This document shows, in pieces, positions 42,487 to 61,654 of a stretch of DNA of 61,654 nucleotides. The position numbers and the translations under genes are program-made. The stretch spans positions 1 through 61,654 of the forward strand of contig JAIEMM010000007.1 of the NCBI GenBank assembly GCA_019752125.1. The letters are read 5' to 3'. Below the pieces are notes generated by a model that saw nothing but the letters and a program-made list of their open reading frames with translations, was not told where the DNA came from and did no database searches. Each line of letters starts with the position of its first letter. Position 1 is the first letter of the stretch. The DNA is from Patescibacteria group bacterium (GTDB lineage: Bacteria > Patescibacteriota > Minisyncoccia > Phycocordibacterales > SBAW01).

Positions 42487-42672
42487 TTAACGAGGATATT
42501 CTTTCTCGATTTCGGCTATTGCTTCGCAGTACGAGCAAAGCTTTTTACCGATTTCAATTTTTTCGTGGCAGCTTTCGCAGCGCACATCATCATCGTTGAA
42601 TTCTTCAAGTTCGGTGTGCTCCGGTTCGTCTTCAACGTCCCAAAGCGTTCCGCTGCAATACAACGTAGTCAT
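42487..42672 (-). CDS. Small acidic zinc-finger-like protein (CxxC...CxxC, 61 aa); accessory cassette
   Basis: CESC/CSYC; SD AGGAGAAGG; TTGACA-17-TATACT promoter (42839-42811). Confidence 0.7.
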   Translation of the reverse strand: MTTLYCSGTLWDVEDEPEHTELEEFNDDDVRCESCHEKIEIGKKLCSYCEAIAEIEKEYPR

Positions 42673-42870
42673 GACCTTCTCCTATATTGGGTTGAACCAA
42701 AATAGAAGCCTACCCGCTTTCTGCACGCACGCAGGGGCAAAGGGTAGAGGATCGGCTCTCGGTCCTGATAGCCCACACAGACCGAAAGATATTTAAAGAA
42801 CGTAAGCTTGAGTATATCTTAAATATTCTATTTTGTCAATAGCCATCTACATAAGGTAAAGTATAAGGGA

Positions 42871-45077: not shown

Positions 45078-46129
45078 TTACCTCAGATATAATCCGAGTT
45101 TTTGTTCCCGCAATGATCACGTTTTTAGTGGGCATCGGCATTACACCCTTTGTCACTCATTTTTTATACAAATGGAAGATGTGGAAACCTAAAGCAGGAA
45201 AGGTTGCCTTTGATGGAAAACCTGCAGAGGTTTTTAACCAACTCCATGAGGCACGCGAAACTGGCACACCACGTTTTGGCGGAGTCATCGTGTGGGGGAG
45301 TGTGCTTCTCTGCGCACTCTTTCTTTCTGTGCTCTCATTTATAGCCCCTGAATCCTTCGGCGGACTTACATTTATCAGTCGTAGCCAGACATGGCTACCG
45401 TTTACTGCACTGGTCGCCGGAGCACTCGTCGGATTCTTTGATGATTTATTCGAAGTGCGTGGCACAGGTGGTTTAAAATTGCGCGTTCGCCTTCTTGTTG
45501 TTGCAATTATTGCCGCATTTTGTGCACTATGGTTCTACGAAAAACTAGGGGTATCTTCTATCTCATTCCCGTTTATAGGAACACCCTTACATCTGGGGGT
45601 GTGGTTTATGCTCTTCTTTGTCTTCACCGCACTCTTTATGTACGCCGGGGGTGTTATCGATGGCATAGATGGTTTGGCTGGTGGGATATTCTGCACCATG
45701 TTTGCAGCCTACGCAGGTATCGCATTTTTTCAGCACCAATACGACATTGCGGCACTCGGGGCTGCTATCGCCGGCGCATTGCTCGCATTCTTATGGTTCA
45801 ATATCCCACCAGCACGTTTCTACTTATCTGAAACGGGTACTATGGGGCTTACGTTAGCGCTTGTTGTCATTGCATTCTTAACTGACATGCACGGTGGAGG
45901 GAAAGGAATTATGGTGCTTCCTATTATTGCGCTTCCTTTGGTAGCAACCGTTGCCTCAAACATCCTCCAAATTATTTGGAAAAAAGTATTTAAGAAAAAA
46001 CTATTACGCATCGCACCGCTCCATCACCACTTTGAAGCCCTGGGTTGGCCCGCATACAAAGTAACCATGCGCTACTGGATCGTGGGCGTAGTCTGCGCAC
46101 TTATTGGCATGACCATTGCTCTTTTCTGA
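45074..46129 (+). CDS. mraY: Phospho-N-acetylmuramoyl-pentapeptide transferase
   Basis: GTPRFGG, GFFDD, DGIDGLA, APLHHHFEALGW. Confidence 0.95.
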   Translation: MITSDIIRVFVPAMITFLVGIGITPFVTHFLYKWKMWKPKAGKVAFDGKPAEVFNQLHEARETGTPRFGGVIVWGSVLLCALFLSVLSFIAPESFGGLTFISRSQTWLPFTALVAGALVGFFDDLFEVRGTGGLKLRVRLLVVAIIAAFCALWFYEKLGVSSISFPFIGTPLHLGVWFMLFFVFTALFMYAGGVIDGIDGLAGGIFCTMFAAYAGIAFFQHQYDIAALGAAIAGALLAFLWFNIPPARFYLSETGTMGLTLALVVIAFLTDMHGGGKGIMVLPIIALPLVATVASNILQIIWKKVFKKKLLRIAPLHHHFEALGWPAYKVTMRYWIVGVVCALIGMTIALF

Positions 46130-47223
46130 TGAAGAACCGAATCGACACTCCATTCTTTTTCACAACTGGAGCACTTGTTGTGTGCGGCCTACTGATATTT
46201 ACTTCAGCCGCACTTGGGCAACTTGCACGCGACGGCGCTTCGTTTACGTCTGTAGCCGTAAGCCAGCTCCTACTTGGCTTTGTATGTGGCAGCATTCTGC
46301 TTGTATTTTTTTCACGCCTAGACTACAGAATATTAAAACCCTATACGCCATATATTTTTGCTTTCGCGTTTTTTCTCACACTTCTTACCTTTGTTCCTCA
46401 TATCGGGCTGTCTCTTAAAGGCGCGTCCCGCTGGATAGTCATCGGGGGCTTCTCAGTCCAACCGGAAGAGGTTCTCAAGCTCGCAACTGTGCTGTTTCTT
46501 GCAGCTGTATATTCAACACGAGCAAAAACTGTTCAAACACTTAAGGGTGGGATTGTGCCACTTATACTTATCACCGGAAGCGTTGCCGCAGTTCTTATAG
46601 CACAACCAAACACCGCAGGCGTGATTATTATCGGCATGGCAAGTGCAGCCATACTTTTTGCTGCGGGCGGCCGCGTCTTACATCTATGTATGCTTGCCGC
46701 AGTGGGCGTGTGTGCAATAGTTGGCGCAGCGTTTGTATACCCTCACGTCGCATCACGCATTGAAACATATCTACACCATTCATCTGACCCACAAGGAGCT
46801 GGCTACCAAGTGGAGCAGTCGCTTATCGCTATCGGTTCTGGAGGCTTAACCGGACGTGGCTTCGGGCAAAGTATAGAAAAGTTTTCATATCTTCCAGAAC
46901 CTATAGGGGACTCTATTTTTGCCGTTGCAGGTGAAGAATTCGGCTTCATCGGGAGCAGCCTGCTTGTTATGCTCTTTGCGCTTTTCACTATGTTGGGCCT
47001 ACGTATAGCCGCCCGGGCACAGGACCCCTTCGGTGGACTGCTCGTCGTTGGACTTGTTATACTCATTGCGGGGCAATCTTTTTTCAACATTGCTTCATCG
47101 CTCGCACTCGTTCCACTGGTCGGCGTCCCGCTTATTTTCGTATCCCACGGTGGCACAGCGCTGGCGTTGGCACTTGCAGAAGTAGGTCTCATACTCAGCG
47201 TTTCAAGGCATATGCGCTCTTAA
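46129..47223 (+). CDS. ftsW: SEDS family peptidoglycan polymerase FtsW
   Basis: GASRWI, SVQPEEVLK, GYQVEQSLIAIGSGG, LPEPIGDSIF, SHGG. Confidence 0.92.
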   Translation: MKNRIDTPFFFTTGALVVCGLLIFTSAALGQLARDGASFTSVAVSQLLLGFVCGSILLVFFSRLDYRILKPYTPYIFAFAFFLTLLTFVPHIGLSLKGASRWIVIGGFSVQPEEVLKLATVLFLAAVYSTRAKTVQTLKGGIVPLILITGSVAAVLIAQPNTAGVIIIGMASAAILFAAGGRVLHLCMLAAVGVCAIVGAAFVYPHVASRIETYLHHSSDPQGAGYQVEQSLIAIGSGGLTGRGFGQSIEKFSYLPEPIGDSIFAVAGEEFGFIGSSLLVMLFALFTMLGLRIAARAQDPFGGLLVVGLVILIAGQSFFNIASSLALVPLVGVPLIFVSHGGTALALALAEVGLILSVSRHMRS

Positions 47224-47230
47224 ATTAACT

Positions 47231-48358
47231 ATGAAAATCCTTTTTACCGGCGGAGTAACCGGAGGTCATTTTTACCCAATCATCGCAGTCGCTGAAGCGC
47301 TCCACGACCGTGTGCGCGAGGAGAAAATTCTTGACCCAAAGTTATATTTTGCGTCTCCGAACCCCTACGATAAAGAAATGTTACTTGCGAACGATATCGC
47401 GTTCGTGCCTACATCAGCAGGGAAGCTGCGTCGCTATTTTTCAATATTAAATTTTTTTGATTATTTCAAGACCGCGTGGGGTATCACAGAATCAGTCCTA
47501 CGCACCTTCTTCTTATATCCTGACGTAGTGTTTGGGAAAGGTGGATACGGAAGTTTTCCGACATTGCTCGCAGCGCGCCTGTTCCGCATCCCAGTGGTTA
47601 TACATGAGTCAGACGCTGCGCCCGGCCGCGTAAATATGTGGGCGGGTAAGTTCGCAACAAAAATTGCAATTTCATACCCTGAAGCCGCAGACTATTTCCC
47701 TAAAGACAAAGTTGCCTTCACTGGCAACCCTGTTCGCAAATCACTCATGCTTCCTGCGCGCGAAGGAATGCACGAATTTTTAAAACTTGAACGAGATGTT
47801 CCTGTTATCTACGTTACGGGGGGCTCGCAAGGTGCTGAGGCGGTGAACGAAGCAATCCTCGCGGCACTGCCAGAACTCGTAAAACACTATCAGATCATTC
47901 ATCAAGCAGGAGAACTTAATATCAAAGAAGTGACACAGCGTGCCCGAGTTGCGCTTGCAGATTCAGCCCATAAAGACCGCTACAAGCCCTACGCATACCT
48001 CAACGACCAAGCCTTGCGTATGACAGCAGGCATCGCGCAACTCGTGATTTCGCGCGCAGGTTCTACTATTTTTGAGATTGCGCTCTGGGGCATCCCGTCC
48101 ATCATCATTCCTATACCAGAACCTATTTCGCATGACCAAAAGACAAATGCCTTCGCCTATGCGCGCTCGGGCGCGGCAACAGTCATTGAACAAGCGAACC
48201 TTACGCCACATCTGCTTGTGTCAGAAATTACACGCATTTTAGGCAATGAACAGCTCCGCTCGTCGATGAGCGCCGCTGCCAGGGGGTTTGCGCGTGCTGA
48301 CTCTGCGCGGCTTGTTGCAGACGCATTATTGAATATCGGCCTTTCCCATGAGCAATAA
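47231..48358 (+). CDS. murG: UDP-GlcNAc:lipid I transferase
   Basis: GGVTGGHFYP, GGYGSFP, HESD, GNPVR, GGSQGA. Confidence 0.96.
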   Translation: MKILFTGGVTGGHFYPIIAVAEALHDRVREEKILDPKLYFASPNPYDKEMLLANDIAFVPTSAGKLRRYFSILNFFDYFKTAWGITESVLRTFFLYPDVVFGKGGYGSFPTLLAARLFRIPVVIHESDAAPGRVNMWAGKFATKIAISYPEAADYFPKDKVAFTGNPVRKSLMLPAREGMHEFLKLERDVPVIYVTGGSQGAEAVNEAILAALPELVKHYQIIHQAGELNIKEVTQRARVALADSAHKDRYKPYAYLNDQALRMTAGIAQLVISRAGSTIFEIALWGIPSIIIPIPEPISHDQKTNAFAYARSGAATVIEQANLTPHLLVSEITRILGNEQLRSSMSAAARGFARADSARLVADALLNIGLSHEQ

Positions 48359-49676
48359 TGTAGTAACTCGTGTAGCGCCTTCGCCTACAGGCCAGATGCA
48401 TATTGGCACAGTCCGTACGGCTTTGTTTAATTATATTTTTGCTAAACAAAACGGAGGCACATATCTTGTCCGCATAGAAGACACCGACAAAGAACGCAAT
48501 AGGGAAGAGTGGGTTGATGATATCTGGCAGGATTTCCAGTGGTGTGCACTTACACCAGATAAAAAATATCGACAGTCAGAACACGTCGGACGCCACAAAG
48601 AATTACTTCATTCTCTTGTTAATTCAGACAAGGCCTACGTTTCTAAAGAACCAAAAAAAGACGATGCTTCACAAACGGTAGAGGTTGTTCGACTACGAAA
48701 CCCAGGCGGGAAGGTAACGTTTACCGATCTTATCCGTGGGGAAGTGACAATTGATACGACAGAGCTGGGAGACTTTGTTATTGCCCGTTCTATAGATGAC
48801 CCTCTCTACCACTTCGCAGTAGTGGCTGACGACGGCGACGCCGGAGTGACTCACGTTATCCGTGGAGATGATCATATTTCAAATACACCAAGACAGATTT
48901 TGATTTTGGAAGCACTCGGTTTCCAGCGCCCTGTGTACGCGCACCTTCCGCTGATTCTTGCACCAGACCGCTCCAAACTTTCAAAGCGCAAACATGGCGC
49001 ATCGCTAGAAAATTATCGCGGACAGGGTTTTTTGCCTGAAGCAATACTCAACTACCTCGCACTGCTTGGATGGAACCCTGGCACAGAAAAAGAGTTGTTT
49101 ACACTTGATGAGTTAATCAAAGAGTTTTCGCTTGAGCGCGTTCATAAAGCTGGCGCTGTGTTTGATATTGAAAAAATGAAATGGTTTAACCACGAGTATA
49201 CAAAAATGCTTTCGCTCGAAGAGTACGAAAAGCAACTCTCTGTCTTTATTGAATCGCGCGGAGAAACCGTACCTCCATACATGCCAGCTATATGTACAGA
49301 GCTTCGTAATAGGGCTCAAACGTATGGTGAAGCCGCCAACTTTTTAATAGATGGCGAATTTTCTTTTATGGAAGAAACTATCCCCACTCCCACTACAGAC
49401 CTTCTATTAAAAGGAGCTAAGGCCAGCGCAGAAGCGGTTAAGACACATTTGCAGGCGGTACTGGAGTTACTCGGCAACCAAGAAGGTTTTACGGCAGACT
49501 CAGTGAAGGAACTTGTGTTCCCCTACGCCACAGAAAAGGGGAGGGCTTCAGTACTATGGCCTATGCGCGTAGCTTTGAGTGGAAAAGAAAAATCACCTGA
49601 CCCCTTCACGCTCGCAGGACTTCTTGGGAAAGAGAGAACACTTGAACGCATTGAGAAAGCCTTCCAATTGCTTTAA
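48348..49676 (+). CDS. gltX: Glutamate--tRNA ligase
   Basis: RVAPSPTGQMHIG, RIEDTD, IRGDDH, KLSKR. Confidence 0.97.
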   Translation: MSNNVVTRVAPSPTGQMHIGTVRTALFNYIFAKQNGGTYLVRIEDTDKERNREEWVDDIWQDFQWCALTPDKKYRQSEHVGRHKELLHSLVNSDKAYVSKEPKKDDASQTVEVVRLRNPGGKVTFTDLIRGEVTIDTTELGDFVIARSIDDPLYHFAVVADDGDAGVTHVIRGDDHISNTPRQILILEALGFQRPVYAHLPLILAPDRSKLSKRKHGASLENYRGQGFLPEAILNYLALLGWNPGTEKELFTLDELIKEFSLERVHKAGAVFDIEKMKWFNHEYTKMLSLEEYEKQLSVFIESRGETVPPYMPAICTELRNRAQTYGEAANFLIDGEFSFMEETIPTPTTDLLLKGAKASAEAVKTHLQAVLELLGNQEGFTADSVKELVFPYATEKGRASVLWPMRVALSGKEKSPDPFTLAGLLGKERTLERIEKAFQLL

Positions 49677-49685
49677 AGTAGAGTA

Positions 49686-50924
49686 ATGCTCTCACTGTTT
49701 GCTTCTTTGCTACTTTTGTTTGCCCCTATAGCTCACGCTCAGACACCGAGCGATGTGCAGGCGCAGATAGATACCAATACTACGCAGATACAACAACTGC
49801 AAGCAGAAATTGCACAACTGCAAAAGCAACTCGATGCAACCTCCAAACAAAAGCAGACTCTCCAAAATGCAATCAACGAAATTGCTCTTAACATCAAGAA
49901 GATAAATACGACCATTACGCTTACTAATGCGCAGATCGTCCAAAAAGACAAAGAGATAAATCGTCTCTCCGGAAGTATCTCAACTACAACGGACGAGATA
50001 GGGGTAGTCGCGGATGAAATTGGAAGTTCACTCCAGCAGTTAAACATGCTCGACAATGAACCACTGGCTCTTGTCATTTTAAGCGGTGCAGATATTTCAT
50101 CAGTGTTCGATACAGAAAATGCACTCGAGTCAATTCGAAGCGGCCTTCAAAACAGAACAACAGAACTTCAGCATCTGAAAAGCAATCTCGTTAGCACAAA
50201 AAATACAACAACGCAGCAGCGTGCACAGCTAGCGACGCTCAAACAAAATCTCGCGCAACAGAAAACCAGCTTAGGATTGGCCCAGCAATCACAAACGCAA
50301 CTTCTCGCACAGACTAAAAACCAAGAGAGTTCATACCAAGCACTTATTGCACAGAAAAAAGCAGAAGAGGCGGCCTTTGAAGCAGAGCTGGTGAAGCTTG
50401 CGCAAGGACTCGGTACGGCTGATGTTTCAAGCGCAGCTGCAGCTAGACGTGGAATATTGAAATGGCCCCTCGACAACGTTGCCATCACGCAATATTTTGG
50501 GAACACTTCGTTCGCCCAATCTGGTGCATACAGTGGCCAAGGCCACAATGGTATAGACTTCCGCGCACCAATCGGTACGCCAATTAAAACAGCTCTTACT
50601 GGAACAGTGCAGGAAATAAACTTGGGCGCCGTTAAGAACTGTCAGTACGGAAAATGGGTGCTTATAAAACACGACAACGGTTTGACCTCGCTGTATGCCC
50701 ACCTTTCGTCCATTACAGTAAATAAAGGGGACAGAGTGCTAACAGGACAGGTGATAGGGTATGCAGGCGATACAGGCTACGCAACTGGCCCTCACCTCCA
50801 CCTCACAGTATATGTATCGAGCGCAGTCAGTTTTAAAACCTATACATGCAACAGCGGTAAAACTGCATATATTCCCATCGCACCTCTCAACGCGTACTTA
50901 AACCCTCTCTCGTATTTGCCATAA
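49686..50924 (+). CDS. Secreted coiled-coil protein with M23 peptidase domain (EnvC/CwlO-like)
   Basis: Signal peptide, long coiled coil, HNGIDF, YAHL, TGPHLH. Confidence 0.93.
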   Translation: MLSLFASLLLLFAPIAHAQTPSDVQAQIDTNTTQIQQLQAEIAQLQKQLDATSKQKQTLQNAINEIALNIKKINTTITLTNAQIVQKDKEINRLSGSISTTTDEIGVVADEIGSSLQQLNMLDNEPLALVILSGADISSVFDTENALESIRSGLQNRTTELQHLKSNLVSTKNTTTQQRAQLATLKQNLAQQKTSLGLAQQSQTQLLAQTKNQESSYQALIAQKKAEEAAFEAELVKLAQGLGTADVSSAAAARRGILKWPLDNVAITQYFGNTSFAQSGAYSGQGHNGIDFRAPIGTPIKTALTGTVQEINLGAVKNCQYGKWVLIKHDNGLTSLYAHLSSITVNKGDRVLTGQVIGYAGDTGYATGPHLHLTVYVSSAVSFKTYTCNSGKTAYIPIAPLNAYLNPLSYLP

Positions 50925-50993
50925 AAAAATACTATATACTTATGGGTGAGCGGTGGTGGTCGAGCCGCATAAATCTCTAACATATTTTACACT

Positions 50994-51215
50994 ATGAAAG
51001 TAGTACATATGGTTGCGTTTATTCTTCTCGTGGTCGGCGGCTTGAACTGGGGCCTCGTTGGTCTTGGCAACTTCGCTGGTAGCGATTGGAATATCGTGAA
51101 CATGCTCCTTGGCTCATGGCCAATGGTTGAACAGGCTGTCTATGTCCTTGTAGGCGTCTCAGCAGTATGGCTTCTCATCGGTCACAAGAAAGCCTGCAGA
51201 GAGTGCTCAATGTAG
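50994..51215 (+). CDS. DUF378 family small membrane protein
   Basis: LLVVGGLNWGLVG...VYVLVGVSA. Confidence 0.9.
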   Translation: MKVVHMVAFILLVVGGLNWGLVGLGNFAGSDWNIVNMLLGSWPMVEQAVYVLVGVSAVWLLIGHKKACRECSM

Positions 51216-51232
51216 TAGGCCAGTTTTTTAGT

Positions 51233-51261
51233 AAAAATCCCCGCCTTTGGTGGGGATTTTT
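51233..51261. terminator. Bidirectional-type terminator
   Basis: AAAAATCCCCGCC-TTT-GGTGGGGATTTTT. Confidence 0.8.
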
Positions 51262-51285
51262 ACGTATATGCTATACTCTTCATCT

Positions 51286-52035
51286 ATGAGCACGAACGCT
51301 ATATCTATTAAGAATCTACGTAAGACCTATAAGACGGGCACGCAGGCGCTCAAGGGAGTCGACCTCGACATCGAGGCGGGCGATTTCTTTGCACTCTTGG
51401 GGCCTAACGGGGCAGGGAAGACCACTATTATCAGCATCATTACCAGCCTCACCAGAAAGACCGAGGGCGAGGCTAAAGTGTTTGATATATCGATAGACGA
51501 GGACCCTGACCAAGCAAAAACCTACATTGGTCTTGTGCCGCAGGAGTTTAACTTCAATATTTTTGAAAAAGTAATCGATATCGTAACCACCCAAGCTGGG
51601 TACTACGGTATCCCACGCAAAATTGCGATTGAGCGTGCAGATGAAATTCTTAAAGCACTCGGTCTGTGGGACAAGCGCAACACTATGGCGCAGCAGCTTT
51701 CAGGAGGTATGAAGCGCCGCCTTATGATCGCTCGCGCGCTCGTCCACAAACCAAAACTTCTTATTCTCGATGAGCCGACCGCGGGTGTCGACATTGAAAT
51801 GCGTTTGGGTATGTGGGACTATCTTCGCCGCATAAACAAAGAGGGCACGACCATCATCCTTACCACTCACTACTTGGAAGAAGCAGAGCAGCTTTGCCGC
51901 ACGGTTGCCATCATAAACAAAGGGGAAGTGAAGTTGCATAAACCTATGAAAGAGCTTTTGGAAGGAGATGGAGGAGAGAAGCTTGAAGATGTATACCTTG
52001 GAATTATTCAGGAAGATAACAAAGACAACAAATAG
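51286..52035 (+). CDS. ABC-2 type transporter ATP-binding protein (YadG-like)
   Basis: GPNGAGKTT, LSGGMKRR, LDEPT; TGCTATACT 8 nt before ATG 51286. Confidence 0.93.
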   Translation: MSTNAISIKNLRKTYKTGTQALKGVDLDIEAGDFFALLGPNGAGKTTIISIITSLTRKTEGEAKVFDISIDEDPDQAKTYIGLVPQEFNFNIFEKVIDIVTTQAGYYGIPRKIAIERADEILKALGLWDKRNTMAQQLSGGMKRRLMIARALVHKPKLLILDEPTAGVDIEMRLGMWDYLRRINKEGTTIILTTHYLEEAEQLCRTVAIINKGEVKLHKPMKELLEGDGGEKLEDVYLGIIQEDNKDNK

Positions 52036-52036
52036 T

Positions 52037-52810
52037 ATGACAGGATCTCAAATGTGGACCTCGTACTACACGATGGCCCGAAAAGAATTTGTGCGCATGA
52101 TACGTATCTGGTCGCAGACCCTTCTTCCACCTATCGTCACAACAAGTCTCTACTTTGTAGTGTTTGGCTCCTTCATCGGCTCCCAACTTGCTGAAATTAA
52201 TGGTTTCAGCTACATGCAGTTTATCGTGCCAGGCCTCATCATGATGTCGATGATCACCAGCTCATACATGAACACGGTGTCGACCTTCTATTTTGCAAAA
52301 TGGCAGCGCACGCTGGATGAAGTTCTTGTATCACCAACACCAAATTGGATTGTTATCGCAGGCTTTATCAGCGGGGGAATGATGCGTGGACTTATGGTGG
52401 GAGCCTTAGTGCTTCTTGTGTCACTCTTCTTTACGCACCTTGCGATCCACAGCGTGGTTATACTCGTGCTTGCAGGCATCCTTACAACAATGCTGTTCTC
52501 ACTTGCCGGCCTTGTAAACGGCATATTTGCAAAAGGCTTTGACGGTATCTCTATTGTTCCAACATTCGTTCTCACCCCGCTTACATACCTGGGTGGCGTA
52601 TTCTACTCAGTAAACCAATTCTCAGATTTCTGGCGCACGGTATCGCTGTTCAACCCGATTCTCTACATGATCAACGCCTTCCGTTACGGCTTCCTTGGCA
52701 TTAGTGATGTATCGATTGCCTTTAGCTTCTCAATGCTTGTGACAGCCAACGTAGTGCTCCTTGCACTCACGGCGTACTTGTTTAAGAAAGGGTGGGGCTT
52801 CAAGAACTAA
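52037..52810 (+). CDS. ABC-2 type transporter permease (YadH-like)
   Basis: QTLLPP, YMQFIVPGLIMM, PLTYLGGVFYS, NPILYMINAFRYG. Confidence 0.93.
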   Translation: MTGSQMWTSYYTMARKEFVRMIRIWSQTLLPPIVTTSLYFVVFGSFIGSQLAEINGFSYMQFIVPGLIMMSMITSSYMNTVSTFYFAKWQRTLDEVLVSPTPNWIVIAGFISGGMMRGLMVGALVLLVSLFFTHLAIHSVVILVLAGILTTMLFSLAGLVNGIFAKGFDGISIVPTFVLTPLTYLGGVFYSVNQFSDFWRTVSLFNPILYMINAFRYGFLGISDVSIAFSFSMLVTANVVLLALTAYLFKKGWGFKN

Positions 52811-53475
52811 AAAAGTTTTTGTGGCTTCTTGCCTCGCTTCCACTCAGTAAATTTGAGTGTATTGCGTTCAAGAGGGGAGGTCTTGCGTAAGCGTCTACGC
52901 GCGCTGTTTGCAATGATAGAAATGTGGGGCGACTCATCTAACTCTTCAGCAACGAAATCAAGATGCCCTTCCTTCCCCTCTGAGACAACCCATTGCTCTG
53001 GCTTATATCGACGTAGGTCGAATGGTTTTGAAAATGCCTTTAGGGTTTTGACGCCGTCATCTAGATAGTATTCGTGAAAATATGACATCGCGAGCTCTCG
53101 CGGGGTTTTATACACAGCATCGCGCCAACGCAACACAGCATGGTTAGTTTTACTTATTGCACCCCACCCGCCCTTTTCTTGAAAGAGGGTGACAACGTGG
53201 TCGTCGTCGTGCGCAAGCGTCTGCAGATCTAAAAGAAGAGGCTTGTGGCCATGGTAGGCGAGAGCGGCGGCGGCAAACAGCGCGCCTTCCATACAGTGAG
53301 CCACTCTTTCCCTTAGCATCTGACGAGGGGAACGGAGCGTGTCTCCGCGGGGTTCAAAATTTATAGGTAGGCTGTCGAGATAATCCTGTATCTTTTGAGG
53401 AGTATCCAATCGAGAAAAAACCTTGTGCTCCTCCTTCGTTAACAATTTCTTCAGGTTCTTTGTATACACTTTCAT
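52807..53475 (-). CDS. Hypothetical protein, transglutaminase-like (Cys-His)
   Basis: AHCMEGALFAAAAL, DDDHVV, WGAISKTNH. Confidence 0.75.
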   Translation of the reverse strand: MKVYTKNLKKLLTKEEHKVFSRLDTPQKIQDYLDSLPINFEPRGDTLRSPRQMLRERVAHCMEGALFAAAALAYHGHKPLLLDLQTLAHDDDHVVTLFQEKGGWGAISKTNHAVLRWRDAVYKTPRELAMSYFHEYYLDDGVKTLKAFSKPFDLRRYKPEQWVVSEGKEGHLDFVAEELDESPHISIIANSARRRLRKTSPLERNTLKFTEWKRGKKPQKLF

Positions 53476-53534
53476 ATGTACCAGCTCATCCGTTTAGAGT
53501 CGTATTTATATTTAACCACATTTAGTTACCATCT

Positions 53535-53690
53535 ATGTTATATACCATTGCAATCGTCTTATTGATCTTGTGGCTACTGGGTATCGTCTCGTCGTACACC
53601 ATTGGCGGGTTTATTAACATCCTGCTTGTTGTCGCCGTAATCCTCGTCCTTATCCGCCTTATCCGCGGAGAGAAACCGTTCAATATATAA
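53535..53690 (+). CDS. lmo0937-family small membrane protein (51 aa)
   Basis: Manual translation MLYTIAIVLLILWLLGIVSSYTIGGFINILLVVAVILVLIRLIRGEKPFNI. Confidence 0.85.
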   Translation: MLYTIAIVLLILWLLGIVSSYTIGGFINILLVVAVILVLIRLIRGEKPFNI

Positions 53691-53724
53691 AAAAACCGTT
53701 CACCTCGGGGGAGGGAACGGCTTT
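53691..53724. terminator. Bidirectional terminator
   Basis: CCGTTC...GAACGG stem with A-run before and T-run after, between convergent ORFs. Confidence 0.7.
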
Positions 53725-53738
53725 GAATACTGTCGAGG

Positions 53739-54233
53739 CTACCCACGCTCGTACGAAGAGAGCGCGTACGAAGAGGGCATAAAACGAAACGCGCTACCAG
53801 CCTTGATGGAATCCTGGCACCTGCGAACATCTTCCACCGCCAACCGACGCCCGAGAGGGTCGATCGCCTTGCTGCCGCTGACCTTGTTCCAGATGAGAGC
53901 TTTCGCCTTGTCGGCCTCGTCCCCAAAGAGCTGGATGATGGTGCCCTCCACCTTCATCTTGGAGACGTTCACCTGGTTGTAGCTGCCGTAGAGAGTGACC
54001 TCCTGCGTGGCGGCAAAGAGCTGGATCATCTCCGGATCTGCCGTGCAGAATATGACTTCTTGGGTCGCACCATCCTTCTCGCTGAAGGCGATAATGGCGC
54101 AGTGCCGTAAAAAGTCTTGACTCTCTTCTGGTTCGAAAGGATGTGCGTCGCCACGAGCCTTGAAGAACATGCTCCAGATGTGGGGCAAGTGTTTTACCCC
54201 ATTGTGCACGCTGAGAGGCTTGTACTGAGACAT
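53739..54233 (-). CDS. GC-rich hypothetical protein (164 aa); accessory cassette
   Basis: SD AAGGGAG before ATG 54233; GC-rich codon usage. Confidence 0.75.
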   Translation of the reverse strand: MSQYKPLSVHNGVKHLPHIWSMFFKARGDAHPFEPEESQDFLRHCAIIAFSEKDGATQEVIFCTADPEMIQLFAATQEVTLYGSYNQVNVSKMKVEGTIIQLFGDEADKAKALIWNKVSGSKAIDPLGRRLAVEDVRRCQDSIKAGSAFRFMPSSYALSSYERG

Positions 54234-54310
54234 TTTTCTCCCCTTTTTTGTAAGAACTTCCTGCACAAATTACCATACTCTCTCCGCAAATCAACAGAGA
54301 AGAGAAAAGA

Positions 54311-54336
54311 AAAAGCCACTCTTTCGAGGGGCTTTT
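54311..54336. terminator. Bidirectional terminator
   Basis: AAAAGCC-A-CTC-TTTC-GAG-G-GGCTTTT. Confidence 0.75.
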
Positions 54337-54359
54337 GATTGGGTAGGGGATCTAGTCGC

Positions 54360-54530
54360 TTATGGGTGCGTATGCACCTTCGGATAGCGCCAGTTTATAA
54401 CCATGCCCAACACGTAGATCAAGGCGACCGCCAAGGGTCCCCACCATCCGAACGCGTTGTAGGCCATGATGGCCAACAGCAAAATGAAGCCGTGGGCCAT
54501 CGTCACAGTCCCAATCCTTATGCCACCCAT
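54360..54530 (-). CDS. Small membrane protein (56 aa); accessory cassette
   Basis: Manual translation MGGIRIGTVTMAHGFILLLAIMAYNAFGWWGPLAVALIYVLGMVINWRYPKVHTHP; SD GGGAGAG. Confidence 0.65.
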   Translation of the reverse strand: MGGIRIGTVTMAHGFILLLAIMAYNAFGWWGPLAVALIYVLGMVINWRYPKVHTHP

Positions 54531-54828
54531 TTCGCTCTCCCAAGTTACGTTGAAGAAGTTAGGTAATATACTCTCAACAAGTCCTAAAGAACTATATCAC
54601 GTTTTTTAATTTTAGCAATACACCCAAGGCATATTAGTAGGGAAGGGCTTCCCTGTTTTTTTGGAGAAAAAATTTTCAACAAATTTTTATAGTTTTTTAT
54701 CAAACCAAACGGTAGGGATATCAGAAATAATTCTCAGACAGGTGCAGGGAAGAGAACAGGGACACAAAGTACAAGTCGTGATTCAACGGATCCAAGCCCA
54801 AGGGGATACTGAATTTTAATATAGGTAT

Positions 54829-54856
54829 ACGTCGCACAATATACCTTTTGCGACGC
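54829..54856. other. Candidate chromosome dimer resolution (dif-like) site, 11-6-11
   Basis: ACGTCGCACAA-TATACC-TTTTGCGACGC; arms 9/11 inverted; in gene-free gap at the orientation switch; KOPS polarity. Confidence 0.65.
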
Positions 54857-55002
54857 TTATTAGGCTCAATATAGAGGGGGCCTGGCTTAAGCCCTGTTTG
54901 AGCCGCTGGCTTTCAATTAATCCTTCCCCGCCCTATAGTTACTTTAGATTTGTCTCTTAGAATTATTTTATTTTTATTTAATTTACTCTCCTCTTTTCAC
55001 TT

Positions 55003-55361: not shown

Positions 55362-55380
55362 GGGGATTGACGACTTCCCT
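55362..55380 (+). promoter_or_regulatory. 19-nt promoter repeat copy 1 (contains -35 TTGACG)
   Basis: GGGGATTGACGACTTCCCT identical to 55548-55566; -10 TAATTT 16 nt after -35. Confidence 0.75.
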
Positions 55381-55423
55381 GTTCGTGGTAATTTGATTCT
55401 AGTAATTAACTGAGGAGGGTTCT

Positions 55424-55504
55424 GTGGGTCCTGACCATCTTTTGATTTGTGGGGCGGTAGTCGTCGCAATCCTTATCATAATCGCTCGTGCCCGTGAGTC
55501 TTAG
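55424..55504 (+). CDS. 26-aa hydrophobic peptide; accessory cassette
   Basis: SD GAGGAGG; GTG start; MGPDHLLICGAVVVAILIIIARARES; terminator 55507-55534. Confidence 0.55.
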   Translation: MGPDHLLICGAVVVAILIIIARARES

Positions 55505-55547
55505 CCGGCCGCCTTCTCCAGGCGGTCTTTTTTTATGTGGCCATGCG

Positions 55548-55566
55548 GGGGATTGACGACTTCCCT
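55548..55566 (+). promoter_or_regulatory. 19-nt promoter repeat copy 2
   Basis: Identical to 55362-55380; -10 TATTGT 16 nt after -35. Confidence 0.75.
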
Positions 55567-55613
55567 TTCTGTAGTATTGTGTTTTGGCACCATGTAACTG
55601 GAGGGCAAGACAA

Positions 55614-56015
55614 ATGAGCACGTTCAAGAATATCGAAGACATCGTGAAGGCGGATTTCAAGAAGGGTCTGAAGCTTCTGGACCGGGTCATGCCGGGCTGG
55701 CGCGCCAAGGTCAAGAAGCCCGTCAGCATCAGCGACGCCGCATCCTGCCCCATCGCCCAGATCACGGGCTCGAACTTCTTCCACGCCGACCTGGGGAAGT
55801 TCGGCTTCGACCCCGACACCGTCGCCCAGTTCAAGGACGTCTCGCTGAAAGGTTCCGACAGGGTTGCCCGCCAAGAGTGGGCGTCCCAGTTCGGCTTCTC
55901 GACCGGTGAACGGCACCAGAAGAACGAAAGAGGCCACTGGTGCCTGAGCACGCTGGGCTACGCGACGGAGATGTTCAACAAACTCTGGAACACGGAACTC
56001 GGCTTCACCGCCTAG
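55614..56015 (+). CDS. GC-rich hypothetical protein (133 aa), phage-like; accessory cassette
   Basis: SD GGAGG; about 63% GC in sampled line 55741-55800; LLDRVMPGW...C..AQ..G motif. Confidence 0.75.
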   Translation: MSTFKNIEDIVKADFKKGLKLLDRVMPGWRAKVKKPVSISDAASCPIAQITGSNFFHADLGKFGFDPDTVAQFKDVSLKGSDRVARQEWASQFGFSTGERHQKNERGHWCLSTLGYATEMFNKLWNTELGFTA

Positions 56016-56034
56016 ATCGCGTCCCAACAGCCAC

Positions 56035-56067
56035 AAAGGCTTCTCTTTCGAGAAGCCTTTTTCTTTT
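56035..56067. terminator. Bidirectional terminator
   Basis: AAAGGCTTCTC-TTTC-GAGAAGCCTTT. Confidence 0.85.
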
Positions 56068-56094
56068 ATAAAAACAGGGAACTGACTCCCCTAT

Positions 56095-56388
56095 CTACCA
56101 AAAAAGATTTCCGGAGGAATAGAATAAAGATATGATGACATACGGCGCGACTATCACCACACTCTGTAGAGCACTCAAGCTCTTTCTTTTCAAACAAAGC
56201 CAAACTAGGCCTGCAGAAATACCGCAGATCGCTATCAATACAAGATCTATTAAACCGATGACCATATACGAAGTGCTCATGGCACTGTACGCAAGGGCAA
56301 GAACAGCACCTGGTGCAAGTATGTACACTATATAAACCACAACAATACTGTGGACGGCGGCAAGAAAGGTTAAAATCCATTTAGACAT
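56095..56388 (-). CDS. Small 3-TM membrane protein (97 aa)
   Basis: MSKWILTFLAAV...; TATAAT 6 nt before ATG. Confidence 0.65.
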   Translation of the reverse strand: MSKWILTFLAAVHSIVVVYIVYILAPGAVLALAYSAMSTSYMVIGLIDLVLIAICGISAGLVWLCLKRKSLSALQSVVIVAPYVIISLFYSSGNLFW

Positions 56389-56460
56389 AGGATGATTATA
56401 AGGCACTAGTGTAAAAATCTCAGCTATTGACGAGATTAGAATATATGTTAGTGTGCGGCG

Positions 56461-56582
56461 AGTCCTGAGGTGAATCTGCTGCCCCAAACAGCCGAGACTA
56501 ATCTGACCTGTTCCTTTCCATTTCCACGTTCCTGGAGCAAGTTGGTGTCCCTTAGTCTTCACCTCAGGACAACTTCTTTTTT
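56461..56582 (+). ncRNA. Candidate structured small RNA of about 120 nt
   Basis: TTGACG-16-TAGTGT promoter (56427-56454); 13-bp closing stem 56462-56474/56558-56570; inner stem AGACTAA/TTAGTCT; 3' U-tract. Confidence 0.55.
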
Positions 56583-56640
56583 GTGATATCGTAGGCATGC
56601 ACCAAGAGTATCCTTAAGAGATACAAACGGAGGGCTGGAG

Positions 56641-56793
56641 ATGTCCAATTCATCAGAGGGTTCCAACAACCGCTATTTCCTGCACGGTTCCAGTTCGCAG
56701 GATTTGTGGCTGAAGAGGAGCGAGTCGTGGCTGTTCAGTCTGGCCGTGCTCGGTATCACCGCTCTGGTCTCGCTGATCATCCATCAGCTTTAG
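56641..56793 (+). CDS. 50-aa peptide with C-terminal TM; accessory cassette
   Basis: SD GGAGG; manual translation MSNSSEGSNNRYFLHGSSSQDLWLKRSESWLFSLAVLGITALVSLIIHQL; terminator 56792-56848. Confidence 0.6.
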   Translation: MSNSSEGSNNRYFLHGSSSQDLWLKRSESWLFSLAVLGITALVSLIIHQL

Positions 56794-56896
56794 ACCGCCC
56801 AGGTTTTCAATACAAAAGCCGCCCCTCATCAGGGCGGTCTTTCTTTTTATGTCTGTCCCAGGTAGTGTATTCAAAGTCTGTTCCCTGGGGGGTGTC

Positions 56897-57046
56897 ATGG
56901 TTCGATTTGCAGCACTCTGCCTATTTCTGCTGCTACTCAACTTCAACTTCTACTATGTTGTGAGCCAGGCCGGAGTGAGGAGAAACGCCACCGTCACCGG
57001 CAATTTTCCAGAGATTCTCGCGGCTATCATCGTGATCCTTTACTAG
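56897..57046 (+). CDS. 49-aa two-TM peptide; accessory cassette
   Basis: G-rich SD; MVRFAALCLFLLLLNF...EILAAIIVILY; terminator CTGCCA/TGGCAG at 57047-57068. Confidence 0.55.
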   Translation: MVRFAALCLFLLLLNFNFYYVVSQAGVRRNATVTGNFPEILAAIIVILY

Positions 57047-57066
57047 CTGCCATTTTTGGCAGTTTT

Positions 57067-57504
57067 TTATTTTCCAGCAGTGGCTAGAAGTTTGGCGTTT
57101 TGAGTTTTACCCCAGCACGGCTTGGACGAGTTCCAAGGAGTAGTTCCTTCTTTTTCATATAAGTAACGAGCGTAGGCCATATTTCCTTCAAGGGTATATA
57201 TGTCGTACCCAAGCTTCTTTGATGTGGCTAGGTGAAAGTCTTCGTTGACCTGCATTACACCGACGTCGCGGTTATTCTGCTTGCCACGATATATCTCCCC
57301 TTCTTTGTCGAATTGGCGGAAGTGAGATTCGCACTTAGAAATATCCACCATAACGGGGATATCGTAGAAGTACGCTTCTACCTGGTCGCGGATGGTCTGT
57401 GCCTGCGGAGCAATCCCCAAAGTCGGTACAGAAGGGGTTGTCGAGGCAGGGGTGGCACCTAGCGCTGATGAGAGCGCCAGAGCGAGGCCAAGAGCATAAG
57501 GCAT
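57067..57504 (-). CDS. Exported lysozyme-like / SLT transglycosylase-fold protein
   Basis: Signal peptide; ISKCES (catalytic Glu), DVGVMQVN, NMAYARYLY..EG..PW...CW. Confidence 0.8.
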   Translation of the reverse strand: MPYALGLALALSSALGATPASTTPSVPTLGIAPQAQTIRDQVEAYFYDIPVMVDISKCESHFRQFDKEGEIYRGKQNNRDVGVMQVNEDFHLATSKKLGYDIYTLEGNMAYARYLYEKEGTTPWNSSKPCWGKTQNAKLLATAGK

Positions 57505-57698
57505 GAATGAATTTCCATATAACGATAATTACTAAACCCGGGAACGAAAAAGGCCGGCTCGACCGCCGACTTAAAGACTATGATGCCCGTTTCAAAAGAG
57601 TCGGTCAATCGAAGAGCTTGACAAGCCCATCTATATACCCTTGTCTCCAAAAAACCCTTATTTTACAACGTATTTAAACAAGCACCGTAGCCCAAATA

Positions 57699-58301
57699 TT
57701 AAAGCCAGGGAATTTCGTACTGGTCAAACTCTGGAAGCAGTTTTTTGTCGTAGAGCAGGCGAGAAATGACTTCCGCATGGCTTTTTGCACCCGTTAGGGC
57801 GTTGTGAGGCTTAGGTTCTTCTGGAATACCGCAATAATTAAGCACCGCATCCAGGTTGAGCTTGGAGTGATGTTTCTCAGGATCAACTGGGGGAGTCAGT
57901 CCCCTCTTTATCATGTGCATGTAACACAAGGTGTGGGTGTCGATAGTACGGTGAGCAAAGGGCCAGTCGGTATGACCTGCGCGCTGCGCCCCAGCAGCTA
58001 GAAAGTCGCGGTCGTAGGAAACGTTCTGGCCTGCCAAAGTCCTTTCCTCGAGAGTTTCGGCCCAGACCTTAAATTTATGGATCAAATCGGCCTCAGACTG
58101 CTTGGCAGGGTCAGTTGCTTGTTCCCTGCTAAAGCCATTTACCTGTAAAGCCTCCTCTTCTATATGGGCCCCATCCCAAACGCGGCATTCTTCATAAAAT
58201 TGGTTCTCCGGGTGGTCCAAATCTAAGGCCCCCACGCTTAAAATCGAGTTCTTCTGGGCATCCAAGCCGCTACCTTCAACATCTACGATAAGCATTGCCA
58301 T
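57699..58301 (-). CDS. DEDDh 3'-5' exonuclease (DnaQ-like)
   Basis: IVDVEGSG, AGQNVSYDRDFL, HNALTGA (Exo I-III; last Asp appears replaced). Confidence 0.85.
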   Translation of the reverse strand: MAMLIVDVEGSGLDAQKNSILSVGALDLDHPENQFYEECRVWDGAHIEEEALQVNGFSREQATDPAKQSEADLIHKFKVWAETLEERTLAGQNVSYDRDFLAAGAQRAGHTDWPFAHRTIDTHTLCYMHMIKRGLTPPVDPEKHHSKLNLDAVLNYCGIPEEPKPHNALTGAKSHAEVISRLLYDKKLLPEFDQYEIPWL

Positions 58302-58333
58302 AGTTTAACCTATCTGGTACTATCTTTCTACAT

Positions 58334-58609
58334 ATGGCATCAAAGAAGGCGGGCGGAACAGCGAAAAACCTAAACGACTCAAATGCAAAATATTTGGGCG
58401 TTAAACTCTATGCAGGTCAACCAGCAAAGGTTGGCGACATTATCGTACGTCAGCGCGGCACCGCAATGGTCCCTGGTAAGAATGTAGGCCTTGGTAAAGA
58501 CCACACTCTCTTCGCGCTTATCAACGGCGTTGTCGGTTTCCGCAATGTCCGCAAGATAAACTTCAACGGCAAGAAGGCCGTTCGTTCAGCGGTAGACGTT
58601 ATCGCTTAA
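58334..58609 (+). CDS. rpmA: 50S ribosomal protein L27
   Basis: [31 protein letters not shown]. Confidence 0.97.
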
Positions 58610-59019
58610 CTTCTAGCCCATCTCTGGGCGAGAAACACAGACAGCGGAACCAGTGTTGTTAACTGGAGCAATGGAGAAAGGCCTACGTGAAAAAGCGTGG
58701 GCATTGCTGTTGTATAGGCCCATGTATGCAGAGCCATTGCTTTATATTCAACCAGCAACGCAACAACAAACCCGCCAACTCCCAAAGCAGCGTAGTGGCG
58801 TATATACCAAGGTCCGACCTCGCCAGAACATAGAACCACAAACGTGGTAATCAACACTGTATACAACACATCTCCAGAGGTAGCCCAGAGAATGAGTGGC
58901 CAGCCACTCCCCAACTGCTCATACCCTGTATAGAGAGGCAGGTGCAGATACTCCCAAACCAGGTTAAAGGCAAAGGACAGAGCAACAACGGCTGCTATAA
59001 ATTTACTTGCTATGCGCAT
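58606..59019 (-). CDS. Hypothetical membrane protein (4 TM)
   Basis: [12 protein letters not shown]...GD; VEYKA..W.Y..MP...GLSPLLQ. Confidence 0.75.
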
Positions 59020-59386
59020 CGAGTTTTTTCTCGATAGAGTCTAGGCGAGCGATCAATATCTTGAGATCTACTGTTTCTGAGCGCAACTCTTCTTCTGTCT
59101 TTTCAACTACTTTCTTCTCGTGTTTAAGGCCTGAAAGAATGATGTTGTCACCGATAAAGAATGAGACGAAGAGCCCTGTAGGGAGCATGATAAGAGCTCC
59201 TATGAGCAACGACGGTAGTCCGAAGAGTGAAGGATAGTATTCTGCAGTCTCCCACACACCCTTCCAGAACAGCACGATGCCTACGCCGCCAATAAAAGAA
59301 TAAATTAGTGGCCTACGGCTCAGACGACCTCGAACATGATCTTCCAACTTATCGAAAAAATGATTGACTCTCTGATATGCATTCAT
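59003..59386 (-). CDS. Hypothetical membrane protein (2 TM plus coiled coil)
   Basis: DKLEDHVRGRLSRRPLIYSFIGGVGIVLFWKGVW. Confidence 0.75.
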   Translation of the reverse strand: MNAYQRVNHFFDKLEDHVRGRLSRRPLIYSFIGGVGIVLFWKGVWETAEYYPSLFGLPSLLIGALIMLPTGLFVSFFIGDNIILSGLKHEKKVVEKTEEELRSETVDLKILIARLDSIEKKLDAHSK

Positions 59387-59403
59387 AGGTAGCTCTAGTA
59401 TAC

Positions 59404-59850
59404 CTATATTCCAGCCGTAATGGTGAGGACCATTTCCACACCCACATTCTTTCCCATAACCTTAAACATGTGTTCTCCTGTCGTTTTTATAGGGCCCGTA
59501 AGCTCAATGGAACCTTCTGAGATCTGGAGCGCATGCTGACCTAAAATAGCCTTTGCAATATCCTTTTCAGTAATACCCTTAAACAGCCCGCCTTTTTCTG
59601 TAGCTTTTGCTGAAATAGAGATGGTTTTGCCTTTAAGTGACAAAACTTTTTTGTTAACGACCTCATCTTCTTTTCTTTGAGCTTCTCGAGCGGCCTCGTT
59701 TTGAGCCTCTATCTGTTTTACTTTCTCGTCAGTAGCAGGTTCAGCAAATTTATTCTTAAAAAGAAAATTTACCGCGTACCCATCGGCTACGTTTTTAATC
59801 TCGTGTCGCTGCCCAACGCCACGTACATCTTTAAGGAGAATTACTTTCAT
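59404..59850 (-). CDS. rplI: 50S ribosomal protein L9
   Basis: [37 protein letters not shown]. Confidence 0.96.
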
Positions 59851-59851
59851 A

Positions 59852-61063
59852 TTAGTTCGAGAGATAGAGGATAGCCGCGTTCAACTGAGCGTCATCTCCA
59901 GCCTGGACGGCTGCGCGGGTTGTCGTCGCATGGATATCAGGTTGCAAACCACCGTCTGAGATGGAGTTTCCGTTTGGAGTCAGCCAACGAGCAATAGTAA
60001 CTTTGAGTTGTGCCCCGCCGCCTAAGTCCATAAGCTCCTGTACTGAGCCTTTGCCGAAGGTGCGCGTTCCAACAAGTTTGGCTACACCGTGTTGCTGAAG
60101 AGCGCCTGCAAGGATTTCTGACGCCGAAGCAGAACCCTGGTCTACCAATACAGCCATCTTAAAGTTCTTGTTCCCTGCAAACACGTTATAGCCTAGGCTA
60201 CGATGAGAGACATTTTCTTGTTTGCCTTTAAAATCTTCTGTAACAATAACGTCCCCCGTGGGCAAGAAATAACTTGCCATTTGAACAGCTGCATCGAGGT
60301 AGCCGCCCGGGTCGCCACGTAGGTCGAGAATAAGTTTTGTGTCACCCGACTGTATAAACTGACGCAATGCGTCGCGGAAGAGATTAACTGAGTTTTCTGA
60401 GAAGCTATAGAGTGTGATTTTAAATATGCCGCCATTCAACTTCTCCGTATCGATAATAGGGATGTTGATAGTCTGGCGCGTAAGATTAACTGTAAAAGGT
60501 TTGCCTGTACCGCGCACAAGCGTAAGGGAGACTGGCGTACCGATAGGTCCACGGATTGTTTTTACTGCCTGGTCAGACGTCATCATTTCCGATGACGTTG
60601 CGCCGATAGCAACGATAATGTCCCCAGTTTGAATGTCAGCCGCTGCTGCAGGGGTTCCCTTGAGGGCAGAGACGGCAACAAGCTGACCTTTGGAATTATT
60701 ATCGATCTGCAAACCGATACCACCAAAGGAACCGCTAATATCTTGCTGGAATATCTGCGCGTCAGATGGAGGAAAAAAGACAGTGTATGGGTCGCCAAAG
60801 CTTGATGTTAGCCCTGCGATTGCTCCGTAGAGTTGTTCTTGTGCAGTAGGAAATGAGCTTGAGGCATGAGTAACGACGAAATTTTTATTGAGAAGTTGGT
60901 ATGCTGCCCAAAATTGGGTCATATCTACATCTTCTGGTTGCACGCCCGTTACAGCATATGTAACTGCCGCCGACACGCTTTGCTGATGTATGACTGTTCC
61001 AAGATAGAACGCTGCCATCAACGCCAATACCACTCCTGCTGCCTTCCATTTCTGTGTCGTCAT
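59852..61063 (-). CDS. ctpA: S41 family carboxyl-terminal processing protease
   Basis: [36 protein letters not shown]. Confidence 0.95.
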
Positions 61064-61125
61064 ATATGCCCACAGTATAGCACTTTAGTAATAATTGGAA
61101 AAAATTTTGATGCTATAGTTTATAC

Positions 61126-61654
61126 ATGATCACACGATACGTGCAGAGAAATCTCACGTGGATAGACTGCGCCTCCCCTACCGCGGCTGAGGTTCGCAGC
61201 TTGATGCACGAGTTCGACATTGACCCTCTTATTGCAGAAGAGCTCCTCCTCCCTTCCTACAAGCCCAAAGTAGAGAAAATGGGCAACCTTATTTATGTTA
61301 TTTTGCACTTCCCTACGCTGCGCAATGGTCGGCAGACGCCTGAACAGGAAATCGATTTTATTATCGGCAAACATTTTCTTATAACAACGCGATACGAAAA
61401 TATTGATCCTTTCCACACTTTTGCAAAAATATTTGAAGTTGAGGCTCTGCTCAAGAAAGAAGCGCATGCTACCCACGGAGGCCATCTATTTGTTGCACTG
61501 GTGCGAAATTTATACCAAGCAATAGAAACCGGCTGCACTACAATGCATCGCCGCCTTCGCGACATTGAAGAGCGTGTTTTCAGCGGGGACGAACGCCGTA
61601 TGGTTGCAGAACTTTCTCAAGTAGGCCGCACCATCCACGACTTCCGCCAGTCGA
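61126..61654 (+). CDS. corA: CorA family Mg2+ transporter (3' truncated by window edge)
   Basis: Manual translation MITRY...TWIDCASPT...FDIDPLIAEELL.PSYKPKVE...VILHFP; frame open to window end. Confidence 0.8.
   Translation, partial: MITRYVQRNLTWIDCASPTAAEVRSLMHEFDIDPLIAEELLLPSYKPKVEKMGNLIYVILHFPTLRNGRQTPEQEIDFIIGKHFLITTRYENIDPFHTFAKIFEVEALLKKEAHATHGGHLFVALVRNLYQAIETGCTTMHRRLRDIEERVFSGDERRMVAELSQVGRTIHDFRQS

Follow-up and report, generated by a model that had tools for sequence, protein, structure and literature searches.

The dif site, the Xer recombinases and the translocase FtsK with its KOPS words are textbook biology. In the XerCD/dif system of E. coli and most bacteria, the site has 28 bp in an 11-6-11 layout (Kono et al. 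2011, PMC3025954), and the E. coli sequence is GGTGCGCATAATGTATATTATGTTAAAT (PMC3025954). The single-recombinase systems XerS/difSL (streptococci, lactococci), XerH/difH (Helicobacter, Campylobacter) and XerA/dif (archaea) have sites with near-palindromic arms and a small fixed asymmetry, and integrative mobile elements exploiting Xer (IMEX) include the filamentous phages of vibrios and Xanthomonas, which insert at dif. The dif survey of 2011 covered 16 phyla and predates the genomics of the candidate phyla radiation (CPR) (PMC3025954); the 714 dif sites of the GRiD database come from that survey (PMC6251912, PMC3025954). An initial annotation of the DNA studied here had stated that no dif consensus is described for Parcubacteria, and none was found in the literature; a full-text search that included the letters of the site, with coverage that was not exhaustive, returned no description of a CPR dif.

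The site lies in a 61.6-kb window, by which we mean the whole stretch of DNA that was analyzed. The host is a tiny, uncultured groundwater bacterium, Adlerbacteria-like and a member of the CPR, and the 28-mer is very probably the dif site at which its joined sister chromosomes would be separated when replication ends. We give a probability of about 0.88 to the reading that the 28-mer is the dif site at the junction of the two chromosome arms. The initial annotation had read it in the same way, as a dif site marking the terminus, and conservation, the lack of scattered copies in the loci examined and the arm junction seen in pooled loci support that reading.

Sequence and Layout of the Site

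The site occupies positions 54829..54856 and reads GCGTCGCAAAA-GGTATA-TTGTGCGACGT on the − strand, letter for letter as first annotated in its 11-6-11 layout; the + strand of 54829-54856 is ACGTCGCACAATATACCTTTTGCGACGC. The left arm, GCGTCGCAAAA (54846..54856, − strand), is a putative recombinase half-site, with C or T at position 7 and an invariant inner AAAA throughout the group. The central 6 bp (54840..54845, − strand), GGTATA in the window and GATATA in the group consensus, would be the region of strand exchange by analogy with dif, the cleavage positions being those predicted from the known Xer mechanism. The right arm, TTGTGCGACGT (54829..54839, − strand), mirrors the left arm at 9 of 11 positions. 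Only one copy is present in the 61.6-kb window even when three mismatches are allowed (0 in 100 shuffled sequences), and the window contains no isolated half-site made up of an arm and the spacer.

Recomputation reproduced the identities first given for the comparison with E. coli dif, 7/11 in the XerC arm and 5/6 in the spacer, as well as the 9/11 mirroring of the first arm by the second. The right arm matches that of E. coli dif at 6/11 positions and the whole site at 18/28, the TATA-TT core included. The CPR site therefore has the 28-bp, 11-6-11 form of XerCD/dif but differs from it in its nearly identical arms, which are mirrored at 9/11 positions in the window and 10/11 in the group consensus as compared with 6/11 in E. 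coli. Because the arms are so nearly identical, separate XerC and XerD arms cannot be recognized, and the window site lacks a pair of distinct arms of the XerC/XerD type. Near-palindromic arms with a small fixed asymmetry are the form of the XerS, XerH and XerA sites; unlike difSL, which has 31 bp, the CPR site has 28 bp and a 6-bp center. Among the distinct sites listed from the genome-collection scan described below, consistent differences between the arms are confined to positions 7 and 9. Position 7 is occupied by C and T in equal shares and its mirror position is invariant, and positions 9 and 20 form a fixed asymmetry, with G20 in 115 of 115 distinct listed sites.

Conservation in Relatives and across the CPR

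The locus was compared with four syntenic relatives in which the gene order is kept: ScpA-ScpB, cell-wall genes, GltX, M23 peptidase and ABC transporter, continuing with a gene for a 222-aa protein, a variable stretch and then RNase T, L27, L9 and CorA. The 222-aa protein (52807..53475, − strand) matches no Pfam family but has more than 7900 homologues, and it serves as the synteny anchor for the terminus region. Where the homologue of this protein is 91, 67, 61 and 57% identical, the identity of the site is 28/28, 28/28, 26/28 and 22/28, respectively. The site lies inside the variable stretch in all four relatives, and the aligned 28-mer stands out as a block of identity amid diverged non-coding DNA. 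The 222-aa family (Paceibacterota) is usually found beside the terminus region, and its homologues, where named, belong to Adlerbacteria, Kaiserbacteria and Paceibacterota.

The genome collection was scanned with the pattern GTCGNAAAANNTATATNGTGCGAC, which has 20 fixed letters and for which about 1 chance match is expected in 596 Gb. It matched at least 120 contigs, all from separate assemblies and with one copy apiece. One conserved copy in relatives had been predicted, and this is what the syntenic loci and the at least 120 assemblies contain; scattered copies, which would have spoken against the annotation, are absent from the window and from every locus examined. The labels among the matches listed include Saccharibacteria, Paceibacterota, Nomura-, Kaiser-, Campbell-, Yonath-, Woese- and Berkelbacteria, Pacebacteria and Minisyncoccia. 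The listed loci range from 28 to 57% GC and the flanks of the site are unconserved. The consensus of the matches listed is ATGTCGYAAAA-GATATA-TTGTGCGACAT, to which the window site is identical at 24/28 positions; invariance at the 20 positions fixed by the pattern is partly by construction. All 115 distinct listed sites share the 11-6-11 layout, and position 19, which the pattern left free, is T in all listed sites. Near-invariance over a superphylum and over this range of base composition sets the CPR site apart from XerCD/dif. Complete CPR genomes with the site include CP174360.1 and CP060229.1. In two complete genomes the site is at ~0.68 and ~0.77 of the deposited coordinates, values that can be read only against the position of the origin.

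Nine of the contigs that carry the CPR site (L025, L028, L032, L043, L052, L066, L114, L124 and L125) have Pseudomonadales, Gammaproteobacteria or Bdellovibrionales labels. Five of these (L028, L066, L124 and L125, together with L114) also carry a CPR-type Xer close to the Xers of Pacebacteria and Woesebacteria. It is probable that the nine contigs were assigned to the wrong taxon or binned incorrectly.

A palindrome of this kind could also act after transcription, as an RNA hairpin that belongs to a small RNA or serves as a processing or termination signal. The predicted fold has an 8-bp stem with −14.3 kcal/mol and z = −2.5, and the C/U at position 7 lies opposite an invariant G, which is compatible with a G-U wobble; any palindrome, however, folds in this way. 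The outer pairs, which the pattern left free, are without covariation (pair 1/28 is complementary in 53 cases as compared with 53.0 expected, and pair 2/27 in 66 as compared with 59.5), a variant in L009 has uncompensated changes at positions 7 and 19, and the letters of the loop are as invariant as those of the stem. Compensatory changes keeping the stem were not found. The site has no Rfam match, and a scan of 53.0-56.5 kb with E up to 1 gave two chance-level hits, both elsewhere. The site is located where transcription converges and in unrelated gene contexts. The search of sequencing runs found the site region only as low-coverage DNA contigs, from drinking-water and groundwater metagenomes, and returned no RNA run that holds the site and no junctions at it. 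A function as RNA is very improbable on this evidence, and the dif reading is retained in what follows.

Local Surroundings in the Window

The gene-free gap reported around the site is present and measures ~460-470 nt, from a 56-aa ORF (54360-54530, − strand) to a 116-aa ORF (55003-55353, + strand). The nearest two ORFs face away from the site and make the gap divergent at the local level. Gene orientation had been annotated as converging here, and this is correct at large scale but not locally, where the two nearest ORFs diverge. Long ORFs are essentially all on the + strand up to 52810 and on the − strand across 52807-61485, the exception being the 116-aa ORF, for which an exact look-up of the protein returned no record. 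The large-scale switch of gene strand is at 52807..52810, 2 kb to the left of the site, where the ABC-2 permease gene (+ strand) meets the 222-aa gene (− strand) stop to stop. To the left of the site is a terminator-like hairpin with a T run (54636..54657, + strand), which holds the innermost GGGAAGGG copy and is present at this position in the three aligned relatives L001, L005 and L006 (3/3). A second terminator-like hairpin (54878..54894, − strand) is directly to the right of the site. Between them, the flank CCCTCTATATTGAGCCTAATAA (54857..54878, − strand) is kept in close Adlerbacteria relatives only and not group-wide.

The divergent gap raises the question of an operator or promoter element that acts locally on the small neighboring genes, and a TATATT box 12 nt upstream of the site (− strand), conserved in Adlerbacteria, would suit such an element. 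The flank with this box is kept among close relatives only, and the genes on either side differ in nearly all of the 120 listed genomes while the 28-mer is unchanged. The unrelated gene contexts exclude a local operator for practical purposes, and we give this explanation a negligible chance beside a dif site at the arm junction.

The stretch from the 222-aa gene to the site (53476-54828) differs from the corresponding part of the close relative L001 (L001:7730-8908). L001 has a 392-aa gene there that is absent from the window and has only a faint SIR2_2 Pfam hit. Since the stretch beside the site differs among close relatives, it acts as a variable slot of small self-contained genes. Elsewhere in the window, the leucyl-tRNA synthetase (7813-10647, + strand) contains an insertion, a NUDIX hydrolase domain at residues 387-512, that follows the editing domain, an architecture that is also found in a Kaiserbacteria relative (L010:113-3004).

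Junction of the Chromosome Arms

The 120 listed loci were oriented by the site and then pooled. To the left of the site, 305,670 coding bases are on the + strand and 46,868 on the − strand (87% +), and to the right 38,212 are on the + strand and 298,540 on the − strand (89% −); by majority the genes converge in 79 loci and diverge in 1. The pooled GC skew passes from +0.076 to −0.063 and the pooled AT skew from +0.089 to −0.104 between the two 500-bp bins that touch the site on its left and right, and the signs persist for ~7 kb on either side. The cumulative GC skew had been expected to peak near the site. An inversion at the site is found in the 120 pooled listed loci but not in the cumulative GC skew of the window itself, which peaks at 43,871, 11 kb from the site and within the cell-wall gene cluster; the AT skew of the window peaks at 52,087, 2.7 kb from the site. 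Because both peaks are off the site, the skew of a single window is a poor locator here, and the cumulative GC skew of the window was rejected as a means to locate the terminus. The cell-wall and transporter genes on the + strand between 44 and 52.8 kb have negative GC skew.

Accumulation of KOPS copies, as annotated, was verified: GGGNAGGG occurs 12 times on the + strand of the window and 0 times on the − strand, always to the left of the site, and copies at 53708, 54341 and 54640 are in the last 1.2 kb before it. The rightward polar G-rich words extend over 6881..54752 (+ strand), with ratios of + to − copies of 12:0 for GGGNAGGG and 19:3 for AGGGRAG, and the last + copy of AGGGRAG, at 54746, is 83 bp from the site. 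The leftward words occupy 55374..61314 (− strand), with 6 copies of AGGGRAG on the − strand and 0 on the + strand. The distribution of AGGGRAG in the window, 19:3 on the left and 0:6 on the right, has a Fisher p = 2e-4.

In the 120 listed loci the same polarity is found for AGGGRAG (207:16 on the left, 14:193 on the right) and for GGGNAGGG (69:2 on the left, 5:56 on the right), and an unbiased ranking of 7-mers in the listed loci has AGGGGAG (213:12) and AGGGAAG (187:18) on top. Within genes of the listed loci that face away from the site, 10 of 10 copies of GGGNAGGG are still aimed at the site, so the polarity is not a by-product of the coding strand; the density of GGGNAGGG is 0.118 per kb in both gene orientations. 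In the relative L005, AGGGRAG flips within a 271-bp interval that includes the site.

The 28-mer thus sits at an arm junction of the kind occupied by dif, as seen in the pooled gene strands and skews and, within the window, in the strand switch and the flip of the polar words. It resembles XerCD/dif in being a single copy, in the window and in each listed assembly, at a junction of skew and gene orientation, and in having G-rich polar octamers converge on it, as KOPS do on XerCD/dif; GGGNAGGG also works here. It differs in that the best polar word in the CPR is AGGGRAG. The words converge on the site, and we propose, by analogy, that they may be read by FtsK.

Xer Genes near the Site

With three Xer proteins as queries, tblastn detected no xer gene in the window or among the syntenic Adlerbacteria loci of 20 kb, and neither xer nor ftsK is present within 10 kb of the site in Adlerbacteria relatives or in the 61.6-kb window. 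By Pfam, the large ORFs of the window are all housekeeping genes, and neither FtsK nor an integrase is among them. The recombinase gene that stands beside the site in single-recombinase modules is therefore missing from the window and from its Adlerbacteria relatives, and in this respect the lineage of the window is unlike those systems. Such a gene is present in 10 of the 120 listed CPR loci, and also at the second type of site described below. In each of the 10 loci, the site and a single gene of the Xer family are 468-1246 bp apart, and the gene faces away from the site, an arrangement like that of the single-recombinase systems with one xer within ~1 kb.

Three of the site-adjacent Xers score ~250 bits with both the XerC and the XerD NCBIfam models, for which the cut-offs are 335 and 330 bits; the site-adjacent CPR Xers are below both. 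Equal scores with the two models, and below their cut-offs, distinguish these enzymes of other CPR lineages from the XerCD pair. For one site-adjacent CPR Xer the score with the archaeal XerA model, 225.6 bits, is above the cut-off of 220, which is a point of likeness to XerA/dif. That one recombinase serves the site, as the initial annotation suggested from the symmetric arms, has a chance that is close to even or just short of it.

The Nomurabacteria locus L057 encodes, ~440 bp away from the site, a 310-aa tyrosine recombinase (L057:1724-2656, + strand) that could be either an Xer peculiar to this lineage or the integrase of an element. The protein matches the archaeal XerA model best and belongs to a family of 19 members. 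It was considered as the enzyme of Paceibacterota and rejected because its family is limited to 19 proteins, and for the same reason it says nothing about Adlerbacteria.

The location exactly at the junction of gene direction, skew and polar words, together with the lack of an Xer gene near the site in the lineage of the window, would also suit a site bound by a different protein that organizes the terminus, either a fork-arrest protein of the Tus/RTP type or an organizer of the terminus domain. Known fork-arrest sites occur as several oriented copies and not as one palindrome, which argues against the former. The 11-6-11 layout and the identity of 18/28 to E. coli dif are those of an Xer site, an Xer gene is within 1.25 kb of the site in 10 listed loci, and the site is carried by filamentous-phage contigs in which no recombinase gene was detected (see below). 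We consider a terminus protein other than Xer improbable and continue with the site as a dif.

A Second Type of Site in Kaiserbacteria and Other Paceibacterota

Kaiserbacteria and other Paceibacterota have a different dif-like 28-mer, AYTGAGTRTTA-GAGATA-TTATACTCART, again with an 11-6-11 layout, which we designate the type-2 site (L010:9851-9878, L131:9946-9973, L132:9877-9904 and L160:9891-9918). It precedes a highly conserved Xer gene by 50-120 bp. The type-2 Xer family has 4503 homologues with E below 1e-20, and the best 120 of the 4503 are at least 71% identical. The module is at the terminus, in a position syntenic with that of the window site, and the polarity of AGGGRAG flips at the type-2 site as well. 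The Kaiserbacteria-type Xer was considered as an enzyme acting on the window-type site and was rejected, as the four loci with upstream DNA (4/4) all carry the type-2 28-mer.

No type-2-like site was found in the loci with the type-1 site (the window type), and no type-1 site in the type-2 loci; the two appear to be mutually exclusive. By analogy with XerS in streptococci, it looks as if one module of xer plus site may have been replaced by another. The replacement of XerCD by XerS is paralleled here by the presence of the type-2 module of xer plus site at the same terminus position in sister Paceibacterota.

Sites on Viral Contigs

The pattern of the site is also matched by 27 IMG/VR contigs. 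Three small ones, L138, L142 and L151 (with lengths of 3.9, 5.3 and 6.3 kb among them), contain the site together with a Zot-family ATPase above the Pfam cut-off. The Zot-family ATPase is a hallmark of filamentous phages, and a phage that has a dif-like site and lacks an integrase is a known signature of borrowing of the host Xer. When three Xer proteins were used as tblastn queries, a tyrosine recombinase was detected on only 1 of the 27 viral stretches, namely L134, whose own integrase is ~600 bp from the site, and thus on none of the three Zot contigs. L138, L142 and L151 are candidates for filamentous phages of CPR bacteria that may integrate at dif. The occurrence of the CPR site on filamentous phages in which no integrase gene was detected is a likeness to XerCD/dif. 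The Zot contigs, which carry the exact CPR site, resemble IMEX in this respect; unlike a locus with an integrated IMEX, the window has no second site or half-site.

If the 27 viral contigs, and in particular L134 with its own tyrosine integrase ~600 bp away, are taken together with the DNA beside the site that varies among close relatives (the faint SIR2_2 gene of L001 as compared with the window), the site might be viewed as mainly an attachment site for integrating elements, such as filamentous phages and islands, with no role in dimer resolution. Mobile elements, however, exploit pre-existing conserved sites of their hosts. A single copy in each genome at the arm junction, the near-invariance of the site over the superphylum and the convergence of polar words from both arms point to a host function. 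An integrated element would be marked by a second copy or a half-site, neither of which the window contains. A role confined to attachment is distinctly improbable. Both this role and a terminus protein other than Xer fit the Xer linkage and the one-copy pattern less well than a dif site does.

Proposed Mechanism and Implications

On the dif reading, the site would be the target of a tyrosine recombinase of the Xer family that turns chromosome dimers into monomers at cell division. By analogy with the known systems, a recombinase protomer would bind each 11-bp arm of two sister sites, and cleavage and exchange of strands would take place at the edges of the 6-bp center GGTATA, via a Holliday-junction intermediate. 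An FtsK-type translocase may read the polar words (AGGGRAG, overlapping GGGNAGGG) that are aimed at the site from both arms and would in this way bring the two sites together at the septum.

A broader reading joins five proposals, which we advance together and tentatively, at somewhat less than even odds. The whole CPR would share one near-invariant dif site, on which a single Xer distinct from both XerC and XerD would act; the asymmetry of the inner arms (Y7 and A9 as compared with C and C) would program the order of strand exchange; the CPR-specific polar word AGGGRAG would guide the translocase; some Paceibacterota would have replaced the dif system in place with the type-2 module of xer plus site; and filamentous phages of the CPR would integrate via the dif site.

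The CPR makes up a large part of bacterial diversity and is known almost only from metagenome-assembled genomes. A 28-bp landmark of the arm junction, together with a polar word, can be used to orient and check such assemblies and to find the terminus when base skew is weak. The site could be fed into growth-rate tools that rely on dif databases, and it is an aid in recognizing phages and islands that have integrated. For cultivable Saccharibacteria it suggests a natural place at which delivered DNA could dock. If the CPR does share one dif, genetic tools for bacteria that are hard to manipulate would have a universal docking site already in place. A site that hardly changes between 28 and 57% GC and is exchanged, together with its recombinase, for a second module at the same locus would be a clean case for the co-evolution of Xer and its site.
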